A DNA stretch of 20,000 bases from an uncultured virus (IMG/VR IMGVR_UViG_3300032397_003421) (lineage: Duplodnaviria > Heunggongvirae > Uroviricota > Caudoviricetes): IMG/VR virus record IMGVR_UViG_3300032397_003421. One strand, 5' to 3'. Under the pieces are notes generated by a model. It was not told the origin of the DNA. It saw only the letters and a program-made list of their open reading frames with translations, and did no database searches. The translations under genes and the position numbers were made by a program. Below, piece by piece: positions 1 through 17,805 of this stretch (position 1 is its first letter; every line of letters starts with the position of its first letter).

Positions 1-709
1 GATTAGGTATATCAAAATCTTTTTTACGTATAAGTTTCATAATACTTTGGAAGTTTTCAATTCCGTTTGTATCTATTATACAGATTTCACCATCAAGTAC
101 AACATTTTTAAGATTCATTGTTTGTATTTCTTTTCTCAATACTCCAAGAGTTTCAAATTCATTTCCCTGTCTACTATAGAATTTTATATCTCCATCTTTA
201 TTTATTATGGTGAGACACCTACATCCATCAAGTTTATGTGAAGAGTAATAACCATCTTTAACAAGATCAACTTTGTTTTTAACATCCTCCCAGCTATTCG
301 CCAAAGCAACTTCAAAGGTAGGAATAAGTCCAGGATATATATCATTTATAATTTTATCCCCTACCCTACATTCAAGGTCTTTATCAATTATCTTATAAAG
401 AATGTCTTCATATTCTGAGTGATCTTTTATAAATCTATTACAGTATGATATTGCATCATGCCCTGTAATAAGTCTTTTATTAAGAGCGTCTAACAACATA
501 AATACATCTCCATAAGTACCTTCAGATAGAAGAGTAATATTCTTTTTAAGATTTGCACTTGATACATAATACATCTTAAAGGGATTATATACAATTTCTA
601 ACATATCTTTCATCTCTGGAAATTTTTTCAGTACTTCTTTTTTATCAAGAGTACTATTTGTTGTATTCATTTCTTCTATGAATTGTTTTGTAATTTCTAA
701 TATATTCAT
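1..709 (-). CDS. lig: ATP-dependent DNA ligase (T4 gp30-like), N-terminal part; truncated by the window edge
   Basis: Not in the ORF track; translated by hand from ATG at 709 (AGGAG RBS about 10 nt upstream): MNILEITKQFIEEMNTTNSTLDKKEVLKK...KIIDKDLECRVG...IPTFEVALA...SSHKLDGCRC...FYSRQGNEF...VVLDGEIC...ENFQSIMKLIRKK. Contains motif I (KxDGxR), SRxG and motif III (LDGE). Open to position 1. Confidence 0.93.
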   Translation of the reverse strand, partial: MNILEITKQFIEEMNTTNSTLDKKEVLKKFPEMKDMLEIVYNPFKMYYVSSANLKKNITLLSEGTYGDVFMLLDALNKRLITGHDAISYCNRFIKDHSEYEDILYKIIDKDLECRVGDKIINDIYPGLIPTFEVALANSWEDVKNKVDLVKDGYYSSHKLDGCRCLTIINKDGDIKFYSRQGNEFETLGVLRKEIQTMNLKNVVLDGEICIIDTNGIENFQSIMKLIRKKDFDIPN

Positions 710-725
710 TTTTTTAATTCTCCTT

Positions 726-1913
726 TTAATTTAATTCTACTAAATATTTAATTGTACATTGTTCAGATTTATAAACTATGAATTCATTATTTATAAGATC
801 AATTCCCCCTTTTGCAAATAATGAATCATAGTCTCCTTTAGACTTAAGATTTTGATATGACATAGAATACATTTCTGAAGTATGTTTATCAACTCGATAC
901 TCCATTCCTGTATTAACTTCATATAACGCCATAAAAGCTTGTTTAGCATTCCCCTTTACCCAATAACTACCGCTTAATGAGGTATAACCCAATGCCTTCT
1001 TGCATTTATCCGCCATGTATATACCATCACCAAACATACTTCCTGTATGTACTGCTCCTGTAGGTCTTATAAGCAAACTTGATTTAAGTATATTAAGCCA
1101 ATTTTCATTTCTACTACCATGCCATAAAAGTTTAGTCCAGTGTTTTACAGATTCTTTTTTCTGAACTTCAAATTTATCTTTTGATACTTTATGAATTACT
1201 TCATATAATCCACTAAATTTATTTGATTCTGTTCCCATCATTTCTTTAACTTTATCAATTACTATTTGATCAGTTACTTTAAAAATCTTAACTCCTAATA
1301 TATCTTCTAAAGTTTTATCTGAATCAATAGATGCTGTATTAATACTTACTTGTCCTCTCATTACATCCACTGCATCCTGCTCTCTTTCAAGTATTGCTTT
1401 TCCTTTTATTTTATCACCTATTCCATTAAGAATAAAATCTTGAACTTTTTTCATTTTTCTTGGAATAATAGTATAAAGTTCAGTAAGTTTATCATCAATA
1501 TTTGAATTTGAAATTTTTTTATATTTCAACATATCAGCTATTTGATTTAGAATTTCTTGTGCTTTATCAATTTGTGCTTCAGTAACTTGATCCGCTGAAA
1601 CTGTATAGTTATCCAATATAGATGCTTTTGAATAACTTTGTAAATCTGAAAGAAGCTTCATTATAGTAGAATTAGTAACATCTTTAAGAACTGCTGTTTT
1701 AATTGTGGATTTAAGACTGGTAATATCTTTATATCCTTTTTTGATTTTACTTTTATATATCTTATCCCAATCTAACATTGGATAAGTCATTGTTTGTTCA
1801 GTTAATCCTACTCTACCATATTTCACTAAAAAAGTAGAATTATTTTCTATCATAGTATAATACTTATTATTATTATTTTCTGAGCTAACCATTATCAATT
1901 CTATTTGTTTCAT
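726..1913 (-). CDS. Poly(ADP-ribose) polymerase-like protein (WGR-like + helical regulatory + catalytic ART domain)
   Basis: N-terminal KYY...VKYGRVG...KIKKGY (WGR-like, YGR variant); helical-domain signature LYTIIP; catalytic signatures LLWHGS (H265), GSMFGDGIYMA (Y299), KALGY, NNEFIVY (E377), Q..IKYLV. AAGGAG RBS. Confidence 0.93.
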   Translation of the reverse strand: MKQIELIMVSSENNNNKYYTMIENNSTFLVKYGRVGLTEQTMTYPMLDWDKIYKSKIKKGYKDITSLKSTIKTAVLKDVTNSTIMKLLSDLQSYSKASILDNYTVSADQVTEAQIDKAQEILNQIADMLKYKKISNSNIDDKLTELYTIIPRKMKKVQDFILNGIGDKIKGKAILEREQDAVDVMRGQVSINTASIDSDKTLEDILGVKIFKVTDQIVIDKVKEMMGTESNKFSGLYEVIHKVSKDKFEVQKKESVKHWTKLLWHGSRNENWLNILKSSLLIRPTGAVHTGSMFGDGIYMADKCKKALGYTSLSGSYWVKGNAKQAFMALYEVNTGMEYRVDKHTSEMYSMSYQNLKSKGDYDSLFAKGGIDLINNEFIVYKSEQCTIKYLVELN

Positions 1914-3284: not shown

Positions 3285-5297
3285 ATGGTTAATATAAACA
3301 AAGAACAGTTAATAGATGATAAATATAACGATTTATCAATTGAAGAAAAACAAACTCTATATAAGATGTATTTTGATAAAGAAACTAGAGATGAACTTAA
3401 AAAACAAGTTGAAAGTATAATATATTATTCTACTCCTCCAACACCAGAAGAATTTCTTGATCCTACTAATGGTTGGTTATCTGGATCATTTGTACAAAGT
3501 ATATATCCATGGGTAAAAGCTGAATTTTTAGAATGTTTAGATAAAGAAAAAAAATATAATAAAATAGTACAATATGGATCAACAAGGATTGGTAAAACAT
3601 ATCTAGCAATATTACTTATTACTTATACAATAGTATTTATACATTTTCTTAGAGAACCCGCAATGTATTATGGATTATCACCTCTTACAGATCTTGCTAT
3701 ATACATTATATCCTTTAAATATGATAAAACTAGAGAATTGTATTTACGTCCTATGTTTAAAATGATGGAAAAATCAGATAGATTTATACAAGTAAAATTT
3801 CAAGATAAAGTAGCAACAGAACAAAGAAGGTTAGGTCGAGATAAAATTGTATATAGTAAAGCTTCAACTTCAGGAGAAATTACTTTAGCATCTGGATTAC
3901 AATTACAATTAGGTAATGATGATGCATTAGCTTTTATAGGGTCTAATATAATTTCTGCCTATATATCAGAAATTTCATTTTGGGTTGAAAATGCAGGAGC
4001 AACAGAAGAAAATATTTTTAGATTATATACAGATATTGCAGATAGAATTAAAGCTACTGTTGGTGAAGATTATTTAACATTTCTTTATCTTGATACTTCT
4101 GCAAATAATGTAGATTCAATAATAGAAAAACATATACTTACTGAATTAAGATATAGAGAAGGAGTAAGATTCAATTGGGTAACTAGATGGGAAGCTCTTC
4201 CTAATAATGGTAAAAATTTTAAAAAATGGCATAAAACTGGAGAAACATTTAAAGTAATTACTGGTAATGGATCTATTCCTGCAGCTATAGTTACAGATAA
4301 TAGACAATTAGAAGATATACCATTAGATTTAATTATCAATGTTCCAATAGATTCTTATGATGCATTTAAAGATAATCTTATAAAAAGTATTAAGGATATC
4401 GCTGGTAGGCCCACGGTGTCAGAGAATAAGTTTATTAATAATGTTGAACTAATTACAAACATGTTTAATAATTCTTTATTAAACAATATTGAAGGAGCTA
4501 TAATAGCAGATTCTAATTCAATGCCTGAAAAATTATTATGGAATCAAATTAATACAAATTTATTTTTTCATAGAACACCTTCTAATTCTTTTCAGATAAA
4601 TAGGGCAATTGGAGCTCCTAGATTTGTTGGATTAGATACAAGTTATTCTATAAATGGAGATGCTACAGGAATAACAATTCTTCATAAAGAGTACGATATA
4701 GAAAAAAAAGAATGTGTTTATGTAGTAGATTTAAGTTGTGCTATAATAGGAAAAGAAAAAGGAATAAATTTAGAAGCAGTTCCATATTTATTATTAGATT
4801 TAATTTCTGAAGCTGGATTGCCTATTTATGCTCTTTATATAGATACTTTTCAAAGTGAAACAGGTAAACAATTTTTGGAAAGAAACAATGTAAAAGTAAT
4901 AAAACAAAGTGTTGATAGAGATGTAGTTCCTTATCAAATACTACTTACGACTATGATTAATGGTTTAGTTAAATCAGGAAGAAATATATTTTTAAAGAAT
5001 AATTTACAATGTTTAATGGTTACCAAATCTCAAACAGGCAAAGACAAAATAGATCATCCAGAAGGGGTAATAAATAATAAATATAATAGTGATTGGAATA
5101 AGTCAATTTGTGGTACTTTTGCTAAAGATGTAAGTGATTCACTAGCTAATGCTTTATATGGTGCGTTTGTATCGAATATATCTCCTACAATTATATATCA
5201 AGAAGAAAATAAAAGATTTTCTAAAGATATAATTGATACTAAAGATATTATAAATAAAGCATTAATAAATCTTTTGAAAACTCGTCCACATCTATAA
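3285..5297 (+). CDS. terL: Terminase large subunit
   Basis: 670 aa; PPTPEEFL N-terminal motif, Walker A GSTRIGKT, variant Walker B ISAYISE, motif-III-like LDTSAN, RNase H-like nuclease RFVGLDTS...GDATG, IDTFQS, KIDHP, AKDVSDSLANA. Confidence 0.88.
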   Translation: MVNINKEQLIDDKYNDLSIEEKQTLYKMYFDKETRDELKKQVESIIYYSTPPTPEEFLDPTNGWLSGSFVQSIYPWVKAEFLECLDKEKKYNKIVQYGSTRIGKTYLAILLITYTIVFIHFLREPAMYYGLSPLTDLAIYIISFKYDKTRELYLRPMFKMMEKSDRFIQVKFQDKVATEQRRLGRDKIVYSKASTSGEITLASGLQLQLGNDDALAFIGSNIISAYISEISFWVENAGATEENIFRLYTDIADRIKATVGEDYLTFLYLDTSANNVDSIIEKHILTELRYREGVRFNWVTRWEALPNNGKNFKKWHKTGETFKVITGNGSIPAAIVTDNRQLEDIPLDLIINVPIDSYDAFKDNLIKSIKDIAGRPTVSENKFINNVELITNMFNNSLLNNIEGAIIADSNSMPEKLLWNQINTNLFFHRTPSNSFQINRAIGAPRFVGLDTSYSINGDATGITILHKEYDIEKKECVYVVDLSCAIIGKEKGINLEAVPYLLLDLISEAGLPIYALYIDTFQSETGKQFLERNNVKVIKQSVDRDVVPYQILLTTMINGLVKSGRNIFLKNNLQCLMVTKSQTGKDKIDHPEGVINNKYNSDWNKSICGTFAKDVSDSLANALYGAFVSNISPTIIYQEENKRFSKDIIDTKDIINKALINLLKTRPHL

Positions 5298-5353
5298 TTT
5301 TTTAAATAAATGTTGTAAGAAGTCTATAAGTTTTTAACTTATAAATAGTTCAT

Positions 5354-5373
5354 TTACTAATAATTACTAATAA
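5354..5373 (+). promoter_or_regulatory. Tandem TTACTAATAA motif (putative late promoter)
   Basis: Two exact adjacent copies (5354-5363, 5364-5373) about 35 bp upstream of the ATG at 5408; the same 10-mer occurs upstream of 7205 and 18155. Confidence 0.6.
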
Positions 5374-5407
5374 GTTCGCTAAAGAGAAAATTATACAGGT
5401 GATATAG

Positions 5408-5779
5408 ATGGTAACTTTAAATTTTGAAGTTGTTGGCAATAAAGAAATTTCTGACCAATACTCATCAGAAAATTTGACATTAACTGGAAAGTTGGAAAGA
5501 GAAATGTATGAATTAACATCTACAGATGGTTGGATTACTAATTCTATTTCTAAAATAGGTACTATATCAAAAATTATTGCAAATGTAGAAGATCCAAGTA
5601 ATACTCTTGCTACAGCAAATTTAAGAATTGTTTATGATTCATCTGGTATTGTTATTCCCATAAATGGTATATTTGTTTATTCTGTAGATACTGTATTTGC
5701 TAATTTAATTACAAGTATAGATATGTCTACAAATAGTATTCTTCCAATGAATTGTAATCTTAGTATCTTAGGAATTTAA
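5408..5779 (+). CDS. Hypothetical protein, probably virion structural (beta-rich, acidic)
   Basis: 123 aa, AGGTG RBS, preceded by the late-type motif, S/T/N/I-rich composition. Confidence 0.6.
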   Translation: MVTLNFEVVGNKEISDQYSSENLTLTGKLEREMYELTSTDGWITNSISKIGTISKIIANVEDPSNTLATANLRIVYDSSGIVIPINGIFVYSVDTVFANLITSIDMSTNSILPMNCNLSILGI

Positions 5780-5786
5780 ATTTAAA

Positions 5787-6488
5787 ATGAAAAGATATGT
5801 AAGATATTTTGGTATAGATGATTCATTTAAAATTACAGAAGCAATTATTAATCCTAATTTATATTTAGATCAAATTAAAAAAGATTTAAATGATTTATCA
5901 TTCTTTAAATTCAAAAATGTTTCTTTAAAAAATATATCATTTAAATTAAATATAATTTTTAGAAAAAGTAAGATTCAATTTATACCTCAATCAAATATAA
6001 ATGATGATCCTTATGAGCCAAATATTAAATTTGGTATAAATAGTGGGGCAACTATATCTAATAAAACAAATGATATAGGTATCTTTATAAATGAAAATAT
6101 TGTAAGAAGTTTGCAGAATAAAGAGGCATACCCATTTTTTGTAAAATGGTTACTTTTTGTTTTAAAACATGAATTAGTTCATAGAGGTCAACATTTAAAG
6201 GTTAAAGATGCTAAATTAAGAAATGAAGTATTTCAAAAATCTCCAAAAGATAGACGAGAATATTTATCTGATAAACAAGAAATTATGGCAAGAGCTTGGG
6301 AAATTATTGAACTTTTTAAATTATTTAATTATCAACAAGATAAAATTCGGGAAATATTAAAATCAAAAGAATTAGAAAAATATCAAAATTTCACATTAAG
6401 AGTTTATCATGATGAATTTACTATGAAGGATTGGCAATTAAAATTACTGTATAAATATATGTATATGTATCTTGAGGAGGATGAATAA
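5787..6488 (+). CDS. Putative zinc metallopeptidase-like protein (HExxH)
   Basis: LKHELVHRGQ plus downstream EYLSDKQEIMARA supplying a candidate third Glu ligand. Confidence 0.6.
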   Translation: MKRYVRYFGIDDSFKITEAIINPNLYLDQIKKDLNDLSFFKFKNVSLKNISFKLNIIFRKSKIQFIPQSNINDDPYEPNIKFGINSGATISNKTNDIGIFINENIVRSLQNKEAYPFFVKWLLFVLKHELVHRGQHLKVKDAKLRNEVFQKSPKDRREYLSDKQEIMARAWEIIELFKLFNYQQDKIREILKSKELEKYQNFTLRVYHDEFTMKDWQLKLLYKYMYMYLEEDE

Positions 6489-6491
6489 AAA

Positions 6492-6728
6492 ATGGTAAAA
6501 TTTTTAATGAATGTTAAAATATACTTAATAACAATACTCACTATTATTTTTATAATAATTATATTTGTAGGTATAGTTGCTTTTGTATTATATCTTAAAA
6601 ATAATAATAAAAAATTACAAATAATTCCAACATTTAAAATTATAGATTGTAAAAAAGAAGATAATTTAAATACTCTTTCTGAATCAATTAATATAGCAAA
6701 AGAAATATTATCAAAGGTAAAAAAATGA
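6492..6728 (+). CDS. Small single-pass membrane protein
   Basis: Long hydrophobic run IYLITILTIIFIIIIFVGIVAFVLYL followed by a basic segment; GAGGAGG RBS; ATGA overlap with the next gene. Confidence 0.7.
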   Translation: MVKFLMNVKIYLITILTIIFIIIIFVGIVAFVLYLKNNNKKLQIIPTFKIIDCKKEDNLNTLSESINIAKEILSKVKK

Positions 6729-7159
6729 AAAAATTAATATTAGTTATATTATTTATATGTGTTAGCAGTTTACTTTATGGAATAGATAATAATATTTATA
6801 TAACACAATCTGATAAAATTATTGGTAGATTTACTCCAGAACAATTTGAAACTCTTGTACAAGGTGCTGATAAATATAAAGAAATTATGTTAGCTCAAGT
6901 AGAAAAAAGAGTAAATATTGTTTGTTCAGAAATTAAGGAAACAGATATAAAAGGAGAATATAAAACTAATATTCGTATTATCTGGATAAATAAAAATAAT
7001 ATGGAAATAAATTTTATTGAAGTAGAACTTATATTAAATATAGATAATGATACTTCTCAAAATATACCTGAATGGAGAATTGTATATCGAGATCTATCAG
7101 AAATTGGTTTTCCAATAACAGGAGGACTTTTAATTCTTATATTAGTACTTTTTTTATAA
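6725..7159 (+). CDS. Exported protein with N-terminal signal peptide and C-terminal TM anchor (spanin-like candidate)
   Basis: MKKLILVILFICVSSLLYG signal; C-terminal GGLLILILVLFL hydrophobic tail. Confidence 0.6.
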   Translation: MKKLILVILFICVSSLLYGIDNNIYITQSDKIIGRFTPEQFETLVQGADKYKEIMLAQVEKRVNIVCSEIKETDIKGEYKTNIRIIWINKNNMEINFIEVELILNIDNDTSQNIPEWRIVYRDLSEIGFPITGGLLILILVLFL

Positions 7160-7176
7160 TAATTTATAATATTATA

Positions 7177-7186
7177 TTACTAATAA
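7177..7186 (+). promoter_or_regulatory. TTACTAATAA motif (putative late promoter)
   Basis: Exact 10-mer ending 18 bp upstream of the neck gene ATG, just before the AGAGG RBS. Confidence 0.6.
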
Positions 7187-7204
7187 ATATAAAGAGGAAA
7201 TCAA

Positions 7205-7954
7205 ATGTCAGATATTTTAATAGAAGATAATTATTTAAATCTTATAAAAAAAGTCATTGCTGCGCCGATGGTCGATTCACTTTTATTAGATGACGAAGAA
7301 ATAAAAGATCTTTGTATATTCCCTGTTTTACAGCGATATTTTACAAAATTTCCTCTTAAAGAGGAATATACTGCTTCAATAAATGGAGAAACATTTGTAA
7401 CATTTCCAGACGATTACACCTTCGGTGTTTTAGATGCAAGAGTAGTGGATATTGGATTACTTCCGGGAAGTGGTACATCATTTTGGGATTTAATTTTATT
7501 TATGAATACAACATCAAATACAGCAACAATTAAAGGTGTTGGTGCTTATGGTGTAAAAGGTTATAATCCATCACAGTTAATGCAACAAAGAGATATGGAA
7601 AGATATAGATTTAAATCTCAACAAAATATGTATACAACTATTAAAACAAGAGTAGATACAGAAAATAGAAAACTAATTGTATATAGCTCTATTACTGGAG
7701 CATTGAATGTTACTTGGGCTAAATATAGTAATAATTTTGCTGATGTTAAATTTGAAAGACGAGATGATGTAATTAAACTTTGTCAGGCAGAAGTTTTAGA
7801 TCATTTATCAGATAGTGCTTCTATATTAGTAGATTCCGGGTTGGAAATAAATATAAATATCGAGAAATTAAGTGAAAGAGCCTCTAAATTAAAAGAAGAT
7901 ATTCAAACAAAATGGGATGCTATCCCTGATAATATTTTTGTTCACATGGTATAA
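7205..7954 (+). CDS. Neck / head-completion protein (T4 gp13-like)
   Basis: N-terminal LIKKVIAAPMVDSLLLDDEEIKDLCI..VLQRY and C-terminal GLEININIEKLSERASKLKEDI resemble the gp13 pattern (LGAP..VEL..DQI.DCI..AL..Y ... G..I.G..L...A..E...L). Confidence 0.7.
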   Translation: MSDILIEDNYLNLIKKVIAAPMVDSLLLDDEEIKDLCIFPVLQRYFTKFPLKEEYTASINGETFVTFPDDYTFGVLDARVVDIGLLPGSGTSFWDLILFMNTTSNTATIKGVGAYGVKGYNPSQLMQQRDMERYRFKSQQNMYTTIKTRVDTENRKLIVYSSITGALNVTWAKYSNNFADVKFERRDDVIKLCQAEVLDHLSDSASILVDSGLEININIEKLSERASKLKEDIQTKWDAIPDNIFVHMV

Positions 7955-7957
7955 ATT

Positions 7958-8088
7958 TTGGATAAGGCTGTACCCTGATAAGATATATAAATCTCTAACT
8001 TTTATATATTTTCCAATATTTTTTAAAATATTTATATTAATAAATAATAGAAAATTACAGTTTTTTATTATTTCAAAATGTTAGAGGT
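7958..8088 (+). promoter_or_regulatory. Structured leader of the homing endonuclease gene (candidate cis-regulatory RNA)
   Basis: TTGGA 7958-7962 / TCCAA 8012-8016; ATATATAAA 7983-7991 / TTTATATAT 8001-8009; hairpin 8042-8054 / 8061-8073; loop ATCTCTAAC 7991-7999 complementary to GTTAGAGGT 8080-8088, which contains the RBS. Confidence 0.55.
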
Positions 8089-8098
8089 AAGTAGAAAG

Positions 8099-9097
8099 AT
8101 GAATAAATTTTATGTATATGTATATGTTTATTGTAACCCCTTAAAACCCGGAAGTTATAGTTATATGGAAAACGGAATAGGTATAGATTTTCCCTGTGCT
8201 CCATTTTATATTGGAAAAGGAAAAGATTTGAGATTAGATTCTCATTTAAAAGAAGCTAAAAAATATTATGATATCATCGAAGAAGAAACTATTAAAGAAG
8301 AAAAACTAAAATACAACAGACATAAAATAAATACTATAAATCAAATTCAAAGAGAAGGAGAAGAAATAATTATTTATAAAATTTGTGAGAAGTTAGAAGA
8401 AGAAACTTCTTATTTATTGGAAAGATTTTTTATAAAGTTAATTGGAAGAAAAGATAAAAAATTAGGTATTTTAACAAATATGACTGATGGCGGCGAGGGA
8501 GTTAGTGGCGCAATTATGCCAACTCCTTGGAATAAAGGACTAACTAAAGATGATAATATTTCTATTTTAATGATTGGAATAAATACATCAAATTCTCTTA
8601 TTGAATATTATAAGAATGGTGGCAGTCATTGGAGTAGAGGGAAAATTGGTGTTTTTTCAAATGAAACATTGAAAATAATGAGTGATAAAAAATTAGGAAA
8701 ATCAAGCCCCAGAAAAGGGCAAAAAAATTCAGAAGAATCTAAGAAAAAATGTTCTGATTCTCATAAAGGAATAAAACAATCAAAAATTACTATTCAAAAA
8801 AGAAGTGAGGCAATGAAAATAAGTTTAAAAAATAAAAACTTAATGAGTGTTAATCCAATTTCTCAATATAGTTTACAAGGAGATTTTATAAAAACCTATC
8901 AAAATTGCTATATAGCAGAACAAGAATCTGGAATTAGTGCGAAAATTATTAGAAGCCAAGCTAGAAGCAATAAACAAAATATTAAAAGACAAAAAGAAAG
9001 AAGAAAATTTATTTGGGTGTATGTAACAGATCTTAAAGATAAAATAGAAGAGAAATGGTTACAAATTCCTGATATTAGTTTTATTCATATGTGTTAA
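8099..9097 (+). CDS. GIY-YIG-superfamily homing endonuclease with NUMOD3/NUMOD1-type DNA-binding modules (free-standing mobile gene)
   Basis: FYVYVY...PFYIGKGKDLR...H, ERFFIKLIGR, LTNMTDGGEG; NUMOD3-like PWNKG, SEESKKKCSDSHKG; NUMOD1-like PISQYSLQGDFIKTY...KFIWVY. ATG at 8099 with GAGGT RBS preferred to 8078. Confidence 0.85.
   Translation: MNKFYVYVYVYCNPLKPGSYSYMENGIGIDFPCAPFYIGKGKDLRLDSHLKEAKKYYDIIEEETIKEEKLKYNRHKINTINQIQREGEEIIIYKICEKLEEETSYLLERFFIKLIGRKDKKLGILTNMTDGGEGVSGAIMPTPWNKGLTKDDNISILMIGINTSNSLIEYYKNGGSHWSRGKIGVFSNETLKIMSDKKLGKSSPRKGQKNSEESKKKCSDSHKGIKQSKITIQKRSEAMKISLKNKNLMSVNPISQYSLQGDFIKTYQNCYIAEQESGISAKIIRSQARSNKQNIKRQKERRKFIWVYVTDLKDKIEEKWLQIPDISFIHMC
9032..9097 (+). repeat. 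Diverged duplicate of the neck gene 3' end (7889-7954), fused in frame to the endonuclease
   Basis: LKDKIEEKWLQIPDISFIHMC* vs LKEDIQTKWDAIPDNIFVHMV*: 11/21 aa identical, 42/66 nt identical, ungapped, stop codons aligned. Confidence 0.85.
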
Positions 9098-9124
9098 ATA
9101 ACAAATTCAATTTATATTTTTAAA

Positions 9125-9538
9125 TTATCTTTGAGTTATCTCTAATTTATTTTTTTCTGCTTCTTCTTTTATTCCTTTCATTTTACCAACTATTGACATA
9201 ATAGACATAGCAAAATCTTCTATTTGAGTACTCATTTTAGTTGCTACAAATGAATTTTTTTTTGCGCACTTTCTATTTTCATATTCTTTATTTTCTACTT
9301 CTTTTGCTTTACTTTTATATACTTTTATTGAATCTTCTAACATTGATATTTGTGCTTGTAGTTCTTGAATTTCTAGACTGTGTTCTCTATTTAAATGAAT
9401 AGTATTATCTTGTAATTTTTCTTTCCAAAATTTTTCATCTAGATGCTTTTGTTTTTTCTTTCCTTGTAAGATCATATCATTTATATCAGTTAACATAAAA
9501 AGTTTTATTATAAATTTTTTAACCATTACATTCCTCAT
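9125..9538 (-). CDS. Hypothetical coiled-coil protein
   Basis: 137 aa, K/E-rich heptad pattern (LEIQELQAQISMLEDSIK). Confidence 0.7.
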   Translation of the reverse strand: MRNVMVKKFIIKLFMLTDINDMILQGKKKQKHLDEKFWKEKLQDNTIHLNREHSLEIQELQAQISMLEDSIKVYKSKAKEVENKEYENRKCAKKNSFVATKMSTQIEDFAMSIMSIVGKMKGIKEEAEKNKLEITQR

Positions 9539-9639
9539 TTATACATCCTTTATTCATCTTTTTAATATTATATATGCTAACTTTCTCTGATTTAAGTTTT
9601 TTGATTGAAATAATATAATCTAGTTCTCTCTTGCTTTGC

Positions 9640-9810
9640 TCATTTATTAACCTTTTTGAGTATAACAATTTTGTCGGATAGTTTTACAATTATCCCCTCC
9701 CTGTCTCTAATATCTTGTTTTAAAGTTTTATTTTCTGATTCGAGTTGAGATACTTTTTTACTCAGCCTATAATTCTCCGTCAAAGCTTCTTCATATTTTT
9801 TCTGATTCAT
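9640..9810 (-). CDS. Small coiled-coil hypothetical protein (56 aa)
   Basis: Hand translation MNQKKYEEALTENYRLSKKVSQLESENKTLKQDIRDREG...KVNK; GAGGAGG RBS; ATGA overlap with the upstream gene. Confidence 0.65.
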   Translation of the reverse strand: MNQKKYEEALTENYRLSKKVSQLESENKTLKQDIRDREGIIVKLSDKIVILKKVNK

Positions 9811-10001
9811 ACTTCCTCCTCGTCATATCTCCATTTTATAACATCTATGGCCAAACCTCCACCAGAAACAACACATCTCCATTCTTTTTTACAGCATCCA
9901 CATAAATATGCATACCCTTCGTATCCATTAGAATGAATTACCTTCAATGTTTTTTTTGGTTCTGGAATTTTATCCGGATAATTATACCATTTACTCATCA
10001 T
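9807..10001 (-). CDS. Small hypothetical protein (DUF551-like W..P...W pattern)
   Basis: SKWYNYPDKIPE...DVIKWR; translationally coupled to its neighbours. Confidence 0.65.
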   Translation of the reverse strand: MMSKWYNYPDKIPEPKKTLKVIHSNGYEGYAYLCGCCKKEWRCVVSGGGLAIDVIKWRYDEEEV

Positions 10002-10369
10002 TCCTCCTCAAATATCTCTAATAAACAATTCAACAAGGCACATTCGAGTTGAGTTAGATTTTCTGGTTGATATTCCAAATAATCAAATGTTGTTAAACAA
10101 CAATCTTCTTTCCTTGTTAAGAGGCTGACCCCCTTTGAATAGAGATGTACAAATTTATTAGTTTTTAAATTATTCCAGCCCTCAACTGCCCGATGAATGA
10201 GGAGAGGGAAATTCATACTATCTTTAAATTTATCAATATATTTTAAAATAATACTATATTGTACCATTGGTATAGGATGATCGGTTACTTCAAACCCTTC
10301 CGCAAGTTCACACATCCATTTTATAAACTCTGGCGTACATCTGTCTTTTAATTCTTTTTCCGTTATCAT
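9998..10369 (-). CDS. Hypothetical protein, paralog of 11166-11552
   Basis: Shared blocks ELK..CT.EFI.WM.ELAEGFE, LI.RA..GWN, LT..ECA.L.CLL.IFEE. Confidence 0.8.
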   Translation of the reverse strand: MITEKELKDRCTPEFIKWMCELAEGFEVTDHPIPMVQYSIILKYIDKFKDSMNFPLLIHRAVEGWNNLKTNKFVHLYSKGVSLLTRKEDCCLTTFDYLEYQPENLTQLECALLNCLLEIFEEE

Positions 10370-10900: not shown

Positions 10901-11182
10901 TTAAATATTGTATTTTCTTTTTAGATGCCTTTCGATTTTATTAAAATCTTCATCATTAATTGGTGAAGATAAAACTGAGATTTCTATTCCTTTATGATCA
11001 TCCCACCATGACCAACGGTAAAATATCTGAGAAGGATAAACACTCTCATGATTTTCGCCTGATGACATACCTATAAGTTTTGAGTGGACAGCTCCATATA
11101 AATCTATTATTCCTATAATAAAATTATCTGTTAAATCCTTTATCTCTTTTTTATTAATTCTTTTTTCATTCTTTGATTTCAT
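10901..11182 (-). CDS. Hypothetical protein
   Basis: ORF track 10901-11197; in-frame ATG at 11182 with GAGGAG RBS preferred. Confidence 0.65.
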   Translation of the reverse strand: MKSKNEKRINKKEIKDLTDNFIIGIIDLYGAVHSKLIGMSSGENHESVYPSQIFYRWSWWDDHKGIEISVLSSPINDEDFNKIERHLKRKYNI

Positions 11183-11552
11183 CTTCTTTCTCCTCAAAGA
11201 TATCTAATAAACATTCAAGACAGGCGCATTCTATTACTGTTAATTTTTTACATCGATAATCACAATATTTATAATATTTTTTTAAATTTTGATTATATCT
11301 TACAGTAAGATTATAAAGAATTGTTATTCGTTGTTTTGGAAAATATTGTTTATTCCATCCATCTATAGCTCTACGAATAAGTATAGAAAAAACAAATTCT
11401 TCTCCCCATTGTAAAGTATCATTAGAATTAATTATAATTTTATCATATTGTTTAGAATTAAATTCTGCGCATTCAAACCCTTCTGCTAATTCATACATCC
11501 AATTTATGAATTCAAGAGTACATTGATTTTTTAATTCTTGTTCTGTTTTCAT
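11166..11552 (-). CDS. Hypothetical protein, paralog of 9998-10369
   Basis: Same three conserved blocks as 9998-10369. Confidence 0.8.
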   Translation of the reverse strand: MKTEQELKNQCTLEFINWMYELAEGFECAEFNSKQYDKIIINSNDTLQWGEEFVFSILIRRAIDGWNKQYFPKQRITILYNLTVRYNQNLKKYYKYCDYRCKKLTVIECACLECLLDIFEEKEDEIKE

Positions 11553-14329: not shown

Positions 14330-15700
14330 TCATATCTCTTCTCCTTGATTATCCTCTATATTTTCTAATCCTTCATCTGCTTGTTTACTTTCCAACTGTT
14401 TAAATAAAAATGATTTTAATTTCCATACTTCAATATTTAAAGATTCCTTTCTTAAACAGATTCCCTCATTCGGAACTTTATTCAGACACATTGAGCATTG
14501 TTTTTCAAGATAAGTTTCTTGTAATTTTTCAAGAAATAAATGTTGCCATGTTTCTATATCATTAGAAGTAAACTCTATTATTTCTTTAAATAAATCCTTA
14601 GCATATCCATAATAATGTTCAAGTACTGCCTTAAGACCATTTTGTTTACACCATTGTTGAATTTGAAACATAGACCATTCAGTTACTTTTCCATCTGAAT
14701 TTGTAGTTGTTATACGATAGATATATTTCTCATGTTGTCCTTGTCTACAACCATAGTCAAAACTCTTCTGTACCATTTTACCATCAGATAAATATCCCAC
14801 GATTTCATAATATATAGTCATATTTTTTTGAAGAAATGGTTTAAGTTCTTCTGCTCCTACTTTCCATATATCAGTAGTATAATAATGATTAAGTTTATCT
14901 TCATATAAATATTGATTTTTTATAACTTTTCTAGATGCATATATATAGCTATACTCTGTTTCTTCTACCTTAACACCAAAAAACTTAACAATTTTATCTT
15001 TTAATGTAAGTTTCCTATTACAAAGTATATAAGAAGTTATTGCAGAAGTGCCATGAATTTTCTCTGTAATACTTATTAAATTATTTGGTTGTATCATATG
15101 AATATTTTTTGCCAATTGTGCTGTATCAATATGAAATTTAAATTGATTGTCCAGCAATTTATTAAATCTTTTTATTCTATTATTCTTCTTATCTTTCTTA
15201 GAAACATTTTGAACTTGTTTAGTTGGTACAAAATACTTTTTACAAATCATTTGCCCATTTATATGATCAAAATCTGTCCCGATTGTAATAAGAGGTATGT
15301 TTTTAGTCAAATCAAATATAGTATCTTTAGATGTTAAAAAATTTATGCTTTGTAAAGGAATAAAAAATCCTTCTGATTTAAATCCTCTTAATTTCACACA
15401 TCTTACTCTACCATTTAATTCAAAAAATCCAGATTTAGTTTTATCCTCATTAAGTTCTTTATCCCTATATAGATTATTTGCTCTAAGAAATATTTCTTTG
15501 ATAGAGCATTCAATAGGAAAAAATATACCTATATCATTTATTCTTGCATCCTCACTTATTTTTACATCTTTAGATATTATTACATGATTACCTTGAATAA
15601 TAGTTCCTTGTATTTGTGTACAATCTTCAAGTTCAATTATACTATCTATTTGTACTATAGTTGCACAATAATTTGGATTTCCTTTAAGTTCTATTTTCAT
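14330..15700 (-). CDS. RNA ligase (Rnl2/DRB0094-like nucleotidyltransferase with N-terminal OB-like domain)
   Basis: N-domain GRVRCVKLRGFKSEG; motif I TEKIHGT; ASRKVIK; IYYEIVG; NEGICLR; WKLKS. Confidence 0.85.
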   Translation of the reverse strand: MKIELKGNPNYCATIVQIDSIIELEDCTQIQGTIIQGNHVIISKDVKISEDARINDIGIFFPIECSIKEIFLRANNLYRDKELNEDKTKSGFFELNGRVRCVKLRGFKSEGFFIPLQSINFLTSKDTIFDLTKNIPLITIGTDFDHINGQMICKKYFVPTKQVQNVSKKDKKNNRIKRFNKLLDNQFKFHIDTAQLAKNIHMIQPNNLISITEKIHGTSAITSYILCNRKLTLKDKIVKFFGVKVEETEYSYIYASRKVIKNQYLYEDKLNHYYTTDIWKVGAEELKPFLQKNMTIYYEIVGYLSDGKMVQKSFDYGCRQGQHEKYIYRITTTNSDGKVTEWSMFQIQQWCKQNGLKAVLEHYYGYAKDLFKEIIEFTSNDIETWQHLFLEKLQETYLEKQCSMCLNKVPNEGICLRKESLNIEVWKLKSFLFKQLESKQADEGLENIEDNQGEEI

Positions 15701-16530: not shown

Positions 16531-17805
16531 TTAGGCTGTTCTTTTAATACTTAATTTATTAAATATATCTATTTTATTTATAATATTAAAATCTAATATA
16601 GTTTCTAATTGAGTATATACATTTTCCCAAAGGTATTTTTGTCCTTCTTCTTGATTTCTTTTTTTAATAATATCTAATTCAGTTAAATTTAATTGAATTA
16701 CTTCTAACATTTTTTCAACTGTTTCATTTATATTGGGTATTTTCCAATCACAGAAATAATTATTTGGTCTTATAGTAGCAACACTTGATATAGGAAAACC
16801 AAAATCTTGTATATATTGTGATATACCACCTACATTATGATATATAATAGGAAGACCATTTATCATTGCTTCCATAAATCCATATCCAAACCCTTCTGCA
16901 AGAGGCAATCCTATATAGCAATTACAACATCGATATCTTTTATATAATTCTCTTTTTGATATTTGTTCAGGCTTAGATAGTATAATATTATCTGATATTT
17001 TCAATTCATAAATCATAGATTTTATATCAGTTCCTGCATCTACTGTATCTACCATTCCATGAAGATACAATTTATATTTTTCTTTATTATCTACTTTTTG
17101 TAAAAATTTATAAAAAGCTTCTATGACAAAATCTAATCCTTTTCTATTGAAATTATGTCCAACTGTAATAAAAACAAAATCATCCTCTTTAATTGCTCCA
17201 CGAAAAACTAATTGTTTAGTTAATTCTTCTTCTTCAAAATAAAAATTATCTAACCCATTTGGTAAAGATTCTAAAGTATTAGCTCCAAATTTATTTAATT
17301 GTATTTTACCAACTTCATTATAAGCAATAGAATAATCTATATTTTTACATATATCACTTAAAGATTTTCTTATATTTGGATCTATTTGTGTTGGATTAAT
17401 TACATATCCAGAATAGAAATCACTTTCTATTGGACAATATGCTATCCATGTAAATGTATCTCTATATGCAGATAATATGATATTTTCAAATTGCCATAAA
17501 TCATGAATTGTTAAAACTATATTAGGTTTAAATTCTTTTATACAATCATTTAAGATAGTTAAAGAATCTTGTTTTTTATTTTGACAATTATAAATTTTTG
17601 AATCAAATAAATTTTCATAAAAGAAATGCCCTTTATTAGGAAGATCATTTATCGTACAATCTTCTCCACTCAAAATGCAATAATTTACTAAATATTCTTT
17701 TTGAATAAAAAAATTACATAAATTCAAAGCTACATATGATAAACCAGTTATATTCTTAAATGAATCACTACATATTAATATTCGAGGACTATTTTTAGAT
17801 TTCAA
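16531..17805 (-). CDS. GT-B fold glycosyltransferase (GT4-like)
   Basis: TGLSYVA, PNIVLTIHDLW, LPNGLD, FITVGHNFNRKG, AEGFGYGFMEAMINGLPII (E-x7-E motif). TTG start with AGGAG RBS. Confidence 0.9.
   Translation of the reverse strand: MKSKNSPRILICSDSFKNITGLSYVALNLCNFFIQKEYLVNYCILSGEDCTINDLPNKGHFFYENLFDSKIYNCQNKKQDSLTILNDCIKEFKPNIVLTIHDLWQFENIILSAYRDTFTWIAYCPIESDFYSGYVINPTQIDPNIRKSLSDICKNIDYSIAYNEVGKIQLNKFGANTLESLPNGLDNFYFEEEELTKQLVFRGAIKEDDFVFITVGHNFNRKGLDFVIEAFYKFLQKVDNKEKYKLYLHGMVDTVDAGTDIKSMIYELKISDNIILSKPEQISKRELYKRYRCCNCYIGLPLAEGFGYGFMEAMINGLPIIYHNVGGISQYIQDFGFPISSVATIRPNNYFCDWKIPNINETVEKMLEVIQLNLTELDIIKKRNQEEGQKYLWENVYTQLETILDFNIINKIDIFNKLSIKRTA

Follow-up and report, generated by a model that had tools for sequence, protein, structure and literature searches.

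How can an endonuclease gene lodge inside the coding sequence of a phage structural gene and leave that gene whole? The question is raised by a locus of an uncultured tailed phage (Caudoviricetes; IMG/VR record IMGVR_UViG_3300032397_003421), of which a stretch of 20,000 nucleotides (nt), called the window below, was analysed. At this locus, an open reading frame (ORF) for a neck-like protein is followed by the ORF of a GIY-YIG endonuclease, and both ORFs finish with related versions of one and the same gene end. Our data indicate that positions 7864-9024 very probably represent a homing cassette of the 3'-end-replacing kind, inserted within the last helix of a T4-neck-like phage gene. Its constituents are a foreign, about 60% identical copy of the last 29 codons and the stop (copy A), a 144-nt spacer and a GIY-YIG gene without a stop of its own. 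Copy A keeps the neck ORF complete, and the nuclease frame enters the displaced native end (copy B) and borrows the original stop of the neck gene. The features concerned are given below with coordinates, strand and basis.

7205..7954, plus strand: neck-like host gene of 249 amino acids (aa), an ORF that is a hybrid of the native body, up to 7863, and an imported end.
7864..9024, plus strand: inserted cassette of 1161 nt, delimited by the joint of 7863 to 9025 in unoccupied contigs of the sediment runs X7, X8 and X10.
7864..7954, plus strand: copy A, the imported replacement 3' end of 91 nt, made up of the last base of codon 220, codons 221-249 and the stop.
7955..8098, plus strand: spacer of 144 nt to the ATG at 8099 (123 nt to the start at 8078), from the reading of the sequence.
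8099..9024, plus strand (alternative start at 8078 possible): GIY-YIG endonuclease proper, ending in ...FIWVYV, from Pfam and PHROG.
9025..9097, plus strand: copy B, the displaced native 3' end of 23 codons and the stop, forming the in-frame C-terminus of the nuclease ORF.
9125..9538, minus strand: converging gene of 137 aa, a flank outside the element and the conserved right-hand neighbour of the neck gene.

The neck ORF (7205..7954) ends in ...KLKEDIQTKWDAIPDNIFVHMV and the nuclease ORF (8078/8099..9097) in ...KFIWVYVTDLKDKIEEKWLQIPDISFIHMC. An ungapped alignment of 7883-7954 with 9026-9097 showed 44 of 72 nt and 11 of 23 residues to be identical, with a TAA stop in both copies at the aligned position and each copy in frame with its own ORF (copy A with the neck ORF, copy B with the nuclease ORF). 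The difference was synonymous only in four codons, and the residue was changed in 12. When all 72-nt segments of both strands were scored, the copy-A site was the top non-self match with 44 identities, the runner-up having 39 (mean 22.7, standard deviation 4.0). Likewise, a neck-tail profile consisting of the last 30 columns of 16 neck homologs matched the last 23 residues of the nuclease ORF (E 9.6e-13, 44.8 bits). In view of both scores, the duplicate is not a product of chance. It had first been described in an earlier note on this DNA, made from the letters alone, and the 11/21 residues and 42/66 nt given there proved to be the same match over a slightly shorter span.

The limits of the insert were obtained from natural alleles that lack it. 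Contigs of four public sediment runs (X7, X8, X9 and X10) holding part of the stretch were compared with positions 6800-9700 of the window, and one contig each in X7, X8 and X10 (three of the four runs) was found to join 7863 to 9025, skipping 1161 nt and carrying between the two positions 18 letters that are identical in all three. It follows from this joint that the insert is 7864-9024 and that 9025-9097 is the native end. The right junction therefore precedes the last letter of the stop codon by 73 nt, close to the entry point of about 70 bp before the neck stop proposed beforehand. The empty site that had been reconstructed by joining about 7885 to about 9026, with copy-A spelling on its left side, is to be corrected, the natural empty site being 7863, 18 native letters and then 9025 onward.

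The unoccupied contigs were close to the window on both sides of the joint, at different distances. X8 record 17 (641 nt) had three other letters in 7674-7863 and one in 9025-9457, X7 record 9 (590 nt) had 24 other letters and two gaps in 7424-7863 and one other letter in 9025-9154, and X10 record 5 had none in 9025-9229. Since the X8 and X7 contigs differ from each other, at least two unoccupied haplotypes share one junction. In X7, a 190-nt nuclease piece identical to the window (8512-8701) was also present, so that occupied and unoccupied forms co-occur there. X9 showed no such joint, but its cover was patchy, and it consequently gives no evidence about that run; it held two 151-nt pieces, one with spacer and nuclease start (8006-8156) and one from inside the nuclease gene (8184-8334). 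A presence/absence polymorphism at one fixed site was thus seen in the unoccupied contigs, in the occupied piece of X7 and in the loci of six nuclease-free relatives.

The 18 letters are absent from the occupied allele, which means that the unoccupied form cannot be a deletion product, and they match the corresponding part of copy A at 11 of 18 positions. Translated in frame, they lengthen copy B by six residues, and these belong to the tail type of the nearest relatives that lack the endonuclease (P0003, P0004 and L003; here and below, P denotes homologous proteins and L the loci of relatives). A search for the 18-letter string in viral_contigs gave six exact matches, none of them related to the window by blastn. 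With 1161 nt gained and 18 nt of the unoccupied allele lost, the net gain amounts to 1143 nt, or 381 codons, a multiple of three. A CNNNG motif, named as the preferred cut sequence of I-TevI in the available part of PMC2988022, extends from 7861-7863 into the first two of the native letters and does not survive in copy A; it was disregarded, since a span of 30 nt is expected to contain such pentamers by chance.

Which of the two copies is native was answered by these contigs and by the relatives. The contigs pass from the 18 letters straight into 9025-9097 and then into the downstream gene, and this colinearity identifies copy B as the native end in its original place. Loci of relatives at which the converging gene comes after the neck gene and no nuclease is present were L001, L003, L004, L005, L007 and L016 (L004 and L005 being near-duplicates). 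The neck end of L003 shared 60 of 72 nt with copy B versus 47 with copy A, and P0003 and P0004 shared 24 of 30 residues with the native end versus 18 and 17, respectively, with copy A; the overall neck identity of these closest endonuclease-free relatives was 85% for P0003 and 80% for P0004/L003. The earlier note had asked which copy matches the uninvaded allele, and it is copy B.

Copy A and the native end, aligned without gaps, were identical at 55 of 91 nt and 15 of 30 residues; the 36 differing nucleotides include 7 of the 18 removed letters, and the replaced stretch (7864-7954, 91 nt) is 18 nt longer than the duplicate that was retained. Since the divergence of copy A reaches 40% and that of the flanks on either side remains under 2%, copy A was imported and did not evolve in place. 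Together with the unoccupied alleles in three of four runs, this bears out the proposal that a diverged replacement end had been brought in and the displaced end left fused to the nuclease. The family-conserved residues W237, D242 and H247 are retained in copy A, and the same copy A is carried by P0001, whose neck protein is 96% identical. Outside this cluster, the nearest tails were those of P0002 (25/30) and P0006 (19/30). Copy A also contains a perfect hairpin at 7914-7926, with a 5-bp stem and a 3-nt loop, which was listed as terminator-like on the minus strand and is not present in copy B. In the spacer, GAGG lies 10 nt upstream of the nuclease ATG at 8099, promoter-like sites were not enriched (8 versus 11.8 expected from shuffles), and comparison with the DNA downstream of the relatives' neck genes revealed no colinear homology, only short AT-rich matches.

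Several further ORFs were observed behind the neck genes of relatives. A small Cys-rich ORF of 54-62 aa on the minus strand overlaps the neck stop at L001 (4719..4883) and L003 (1559..1747); the window has no such ORF, and colinearity implies the same for this lineage's unoccupied allele. In the distant relative L002, an ORF of 372 aa (4749..5867, plus strand) starts 5 nt past the neck stop and precedes the tail sheath gene, and in L008, likewise distant, an ORF that runs off the contig (1931..2163, plus strand) begins about 390 nt past the neck homolog, the two being separated by a minus-strand ORF of 65 aa. The downstream ORFs of L002 and L008 had neither a Pfam family nor a duplicated tail.

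The same arrangement could at first sight be read as an intron, with 7864-9024 or a similar span self-splicing and copy B serving as the true last exon. Neck-gene sequence does bound the span on both sides, and phage GIY-YIG nucleases are often located in group I introns according to the accessible text of PMC2988022. However, no Rfam family gave a match at E<=1 on either strand of 6500-10000, the upstream ORF already has a complete, conserved tail and a stop, and the unoccupied allele has 18 letters that the occupied one lacks, so that simple excision would not restore the gene. An intron is therefore so improbable that it can practically be set aside, and the earlier view that no splicing is involved agrees with the full-length neck ORF and with the Rfam result.

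The nuclease itself belongs to the GIY-YIG class by its catalytic domain. Pfam assigned it to LEM-3_GIY-YIG (PF22945; E 3.9e-11, 43.6 bits versus a cut-off of 27) and PHROG to number 314, 'homing endonuclease' (2.3e-6). NUMOD3 remained under its cut-off (16.9 versus 20.4 bits) and NUMOD1 gave no match in this protein, the end of which aligns with homologs that score NUMOD1 / I-HmuI_NUMOD-like. The ORF of 332 codons is intact and every invariant column of an 11-sequence alignment is kept (Y7, Y9, P35, F36, Y37, G39, K40, G41, R45, E108, N127 and others), among them the catalytic-core Tyr, Arg, Glu and Asn. In homologs whose C-terminal module is of the same kind, the protein ends 1-12 residues past the W.Y motif, which places the end of the enzyme proper at ...FIWVYV and makes the following 23 residues an add-on. 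The tail was carried by one of 92 nuclease homologs, namely the protein of the window (E 3.4e-14), the next best score being E 0.1 and 5.0 bits; nuclease homologs elsewhere sharing the tail, a finding that the earlier note had set against its own proposal, did not occur (0 of the 91 other homologs).

The closest nuclease homologs matched over the catalytic 40% only (62-79% identity) and their DNA-binding parts differed; mixed DNA-binding parts are usual among modular GIY-YIG enzymes. A search of viral_contigs for other copies of the nuclease yielded two distant catalytic-domain relatives only (L022, 37%; L023, 27%), and the nuclease cluster has two members, which differ only in the called start. 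On account of a common K..KW pattern, MAFFT paired the tail with a second NUMOD1-like repeat present in longer homologs; this pairing was rejected as a coincidence, because the tail profile scores P0092 at E 0.84 only and because the tail is colinear with the unoccupied neck allele. In the sediment data, X10 record 3 (762 nt, depth 12.7) matches 8117-8233 and 8372-8483 with 16 and 10 other letters, respectively, and has a replaced segment of 135 nt between them. This contig suggests that the community contains, at another place, a related GIY-YIG gene, which would fit the homologs sharing only the first 40%.

Assignment of the 249-residue host protein was based on fold and position. Sixty-six homologs were found. 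Pfam and PHROG gave no match for the neck protein of the window or for 16 and 13 relatives (the Pfam library being one without PF26809), tblastn gave none in 50,697 phage records, and a sequence search of the PDB gave nothing usable. A structure model made from 16 sequences reached a pLDDT of 46.7, too poor for a structure search, and a model from 63 homologs was used instead (AF2; pLDDT 77.7, pTM 0.66). All six Foldseek matches at E<=0.001 were T4 portal-neck chains (9mkb, 9lu4, 9lu6, 9lu7); the lowest E was 1.0e-7, and the 9mkb chains had TMq values of 0.56-0.63. The entries ranked below those of T4 were head-to-tail adaptors from other phages. Among the T4 portal-neck chains, this output does not tell gp13 from gp14. 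The nearest Atlas clusters carried PF26809 (Phage_T4_gp13) on 12-28% of their members, which was regarded as a lead only. The neck homologs of the relatives L002 and L010 are succeeded by a tail sheath gene. Owing to the fold matches of the predicted model and to this position, identification as a T4-like neck (head-to-tail adaptor) protein is supported, and the label 'neck' chosen from the sequence could be kept. T4 genes 13 and 14 are essential. In the model, the replaced part begins at the start of the last helix (H219-238).

Taken together, the site, the two gene ends and the enzyme class suggest a route of spread for the cassette. The nuclease would cut unoccupied alleles at or near the 18-nt stretch and the junction that the cassette removes. 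The left broken end would then pair with the neck-gene body, and the right one with copy B and the downstream DNA of an occupied genome, and repair synthesis would copy copy A, the spacer and the nuclease gene into the recipient. The occupied allele would escape, its site being interrupted where nuclease and copy B meet and having a very different spelling in copy A, and the cassette would need no splicing. Double-strand-break repair is an established pathway for phage endonucleases (PMC2988022, available in part). If copy B acts as the right homology arm, it would in every case be similar to the recipient, its near-identity to the unoccupied allele would be expected without any selection on the fused protein, and the fused tail of 23 residues would be a by-product of where that arm starts.

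The tail could also be thought to have a function of its own, the 23 residues being kept to dock the nuclease on the portal or neck, to compete with the neck protein or to act as a swappable neck terminus. They are in frame with an aligned stop, they make up most of the final helix and the C-terminal arm in the adaptor-like model, and adaptor C-terminal arms contact portals in other phages. Against such a role, hardly any letter differs between copy B and the unoccupied allele over 130-433 nt, non-coding DNA downstream included, and the conservation of copy B is explained by recency and by its part as a homology arm. Furthermore, the tail is missing from all 91 other nuclease homologs, there is no mechanism for swapping ends without recombination, and in-phase fusions of fungal mobile ORFs have been described without such a role being proposed in the consulted part of PMC3630166. 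A function of this kind is thus very improbable, and the idea of a tether or swappable terminus, put forward conditionally in the earlier note, was left without support: the tail matches the co-circulating unoccupied allele as a right homology arm does.

Other intron-free invasions of essential genes by phage endonucleases are those of T4 mobA, with the gene 60 bypass, and of Aeh1 mobE, which splits nrdA. In these cases the host gene is left in two pieces or with a translational bypass, whereas here it stays a single ordinary ORF. The free-standing Seg enzymes of T4-like phages and I-TevI are of the same enzyme class as the present nuclease, whose probable build, with an N-terminal GIY-YIG domain, a putative linker of NUMOD3-like repeats and a putative C-terminal helix-turn-helix-like end, would resemble theirs; as far as the available text of PMC2988022 goes, these enzymes spread by double-strand-break repair with co-conversion of flanks and their presence varies among close relatives. 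Seg genes, however, lie between genes and I-TevI in an intron (PMC2988022, same text), in contrast to a gene placed inside a coding sequence and accompanied by a spare gene end. The phage literature searched, which included accessible parts of PMC10448857 and PMC2988022 and to which subscription journals did not belong, offered no account of this layout, and the word 'duplicat' had no occurrence in the text obtained of the T4 mobile-element review (PMC2988022).

The layout is already known from fungal mitochondria and yeast, and the present case is that of a phage neck gene with a natural empty site. Fungal mobile endonuclease ORFs (mORFs), or 'gene hybrids', were described for atp6 of Allomyces macrogynus and for atp6, atp9, cox2 and nad3 of Glomus sp. 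(PMC3630166, available in part), and the mobility of the Allomyces ORF was shown biochemically (Paquin et al. 1994, cited in the same part). As at the phage locus, an endonuclease ORF has entered the 3' portion of the host gene, the gene is completed by a foreign C-terminus and the native one lies downstream; the mORF at atp9 encodes a GIY-YIG enzyme, and the ORF is sometimes in phase with the native end (PMC3630166). In these fungi, the native C-terminus is 91-98% identical to that of an unoccupied relative versus 64-81% for the inserted copy, as stated in the available text. The native end is likewise nearer the unoccupied allele in our case, with one other letter in 130 and in 433 nt and none in 205, versus 60% for copy A. 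The host is different, being a tailed phage with a virion neck gene, and the duplicate is of small size, with 73 nt kept and 91 nt exchanged. Further duplications are given in PMC6279837.

The second precedent is formed by the WHO elements at FBA1 of Torulaspora yeasts (bioRxiv 10.64898/2026.08.13.744650, a 2026 preprint available in part), where the organisation is called a rare 'third category' of homing element, from yeast. They too have a foreign inserted C-terminus with the native one downstream and an in-phase ORF, and their occupied and unoccupied alleles coexist. According to the same portion of the preprint, WHO enzymes are LAGLIDADG and zinc-finger proteins of the nuclear genome, half of the gene is replaced, clusters contain up to nine elements, and cleavage and an arms race were shown by experiment. 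The phage locus differs from them in having one GIY-YIG gene and a replacement of 29 codons, known from sequence alone.

The ends of neck genes also vary in relatives. On a tree of residues 1-219 of the 30 closest neck homologs, two tail types (KLSER and AL[KR].R) were interspersed in a well supported clade of 14, with seven members each. The KLSER type required five changes, at least three of them forced by starred branches, against a shuffled mean of 6.4, and 60 of 500 shuffles scored as low. Sister pairs of differing tail type were P0008/P0009 and P0005/P0014; in P0008 and P0009, about 130 N-terminal residues are the same and divergence sets in behind them. From these alignments, the 3' half of the neck gene appears to recombine often. 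In P0002 (88% identical), the tail is that of copy A as far as ...DAIPD and that of copy B from there on (ISFIHMC). Recombination between the repeats at the shared CCTGATA would yield exactly this tail, and P0002 may accordingly be a scar of nuclease loss by that path, or else belong to the lineage from which copy A came. Both P0002 and the scatter of tails are explained just as well by ordinary phage mosaicism.

A bolder reading of the same pattern is an ongoing arms race at the neck 3' end, of which the cassette would be a single visible participant. Repeated end replacement driven by the nuclease, combined with nuclease loss through recombination of the two diverged copies, would have spread two tail spellings regardless of descent and left chimeric scars like P0002. 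We consider it tentative and rather doubtful. If it were true, a selfish nuclease would diversify the C-terminal, possibly portal-contacting, end of a virion protein, as WHO elements do with FBA1.

The variability of this gene end also bears on whether the cassette is mobile at all. Nuclease and copy A might have arrived once, by illegitimate or one-sided recombination from another phage, and now be merely inherited, the nuclease being inactive or unmatched to its site and the tail junk. Only one occupied nuclease haplotype is known, the chance of an in-frame fusion is one in three, and the neck gene recombines often anyway, all of which would suit an immobile scar. On the other side, the reading frame of 332 codons is unbroken and lacks none of the invariant catalytic residues, one run contains both occupied and unoccupied alleles with flanks less than 2% apart, as expected of a young or active element, and the foreign left edge lies only 18 nt from the right junction, as if repair had begun at a cut there. 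Immobility is for these reasons unlikely, though less so than an intron or a functional tail, and a homing cassette is preferred.

A number of observations nevertheless weigh against this preference. No source of copy A or of the spacer was identified among the compared relatives, and copy-A-like tails also occur in nuclease-free relatives (L001/P0010). The scatter of tail types on the body tree indicates that ordinary recombination swaps this end as well. Only a single nuclease sequence is known, and repeated homing into different backgrounds is therefore not in evidence. The main technical reservation concerns the unoccupied contigs, which measure no more than 269-641 nt, have a depth of only 3.6-4.4 and come from metagenomes that may belong to one campaign. 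Present-day mobility of the cassette is putative.

Other genes were recorded in the window. On the minus strand, an ORF of 395 aa (726..1913) combines WGR (4.5e-5), the regulatory domain of poly(ADP-ribose) polymerase (PARP; 3.7e-5, just under its cut-off) and the PARP catalytic domain (3.8e-22), a predicted eukaryote-style PARP architecture in a phage. Matches were also obtained on this strand for an ATP-dependent DNA ligase domain (2..709; 1.4e-10), a group-1 glycosyltransferase (16531..17805; 2.6e-17) and, weakly, an RNA ligase (14330..15700; 6.7e-6, 26.8 bits versus a cut-off of 27). Two paralogous ORFs of about 125 aa with common N- and C-terminal motifs lie at 9998..10369 and 11166..11552, both on the minus strand, and have a homolog at L003 (3357..3731, minus strand). 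The phage is a large one, as contigs of up to 147.5 kb carry the neck and nuclease proteins.

The natural pair of occupied and unoccupied alleles, with its exact junction, indicates that free-standing endonucleases of phages can reside within an essential structural gene, the spare gene end making an intron, an intein, a split of the gene or a translational bypass unnecessary. Such cassettes create hybrid genes and short in-frame duplicates, which mislead annotation and gene phylogenies, and the allele pair provides a ready-made target-site hypothesis for a new GIY-YIG specificity.

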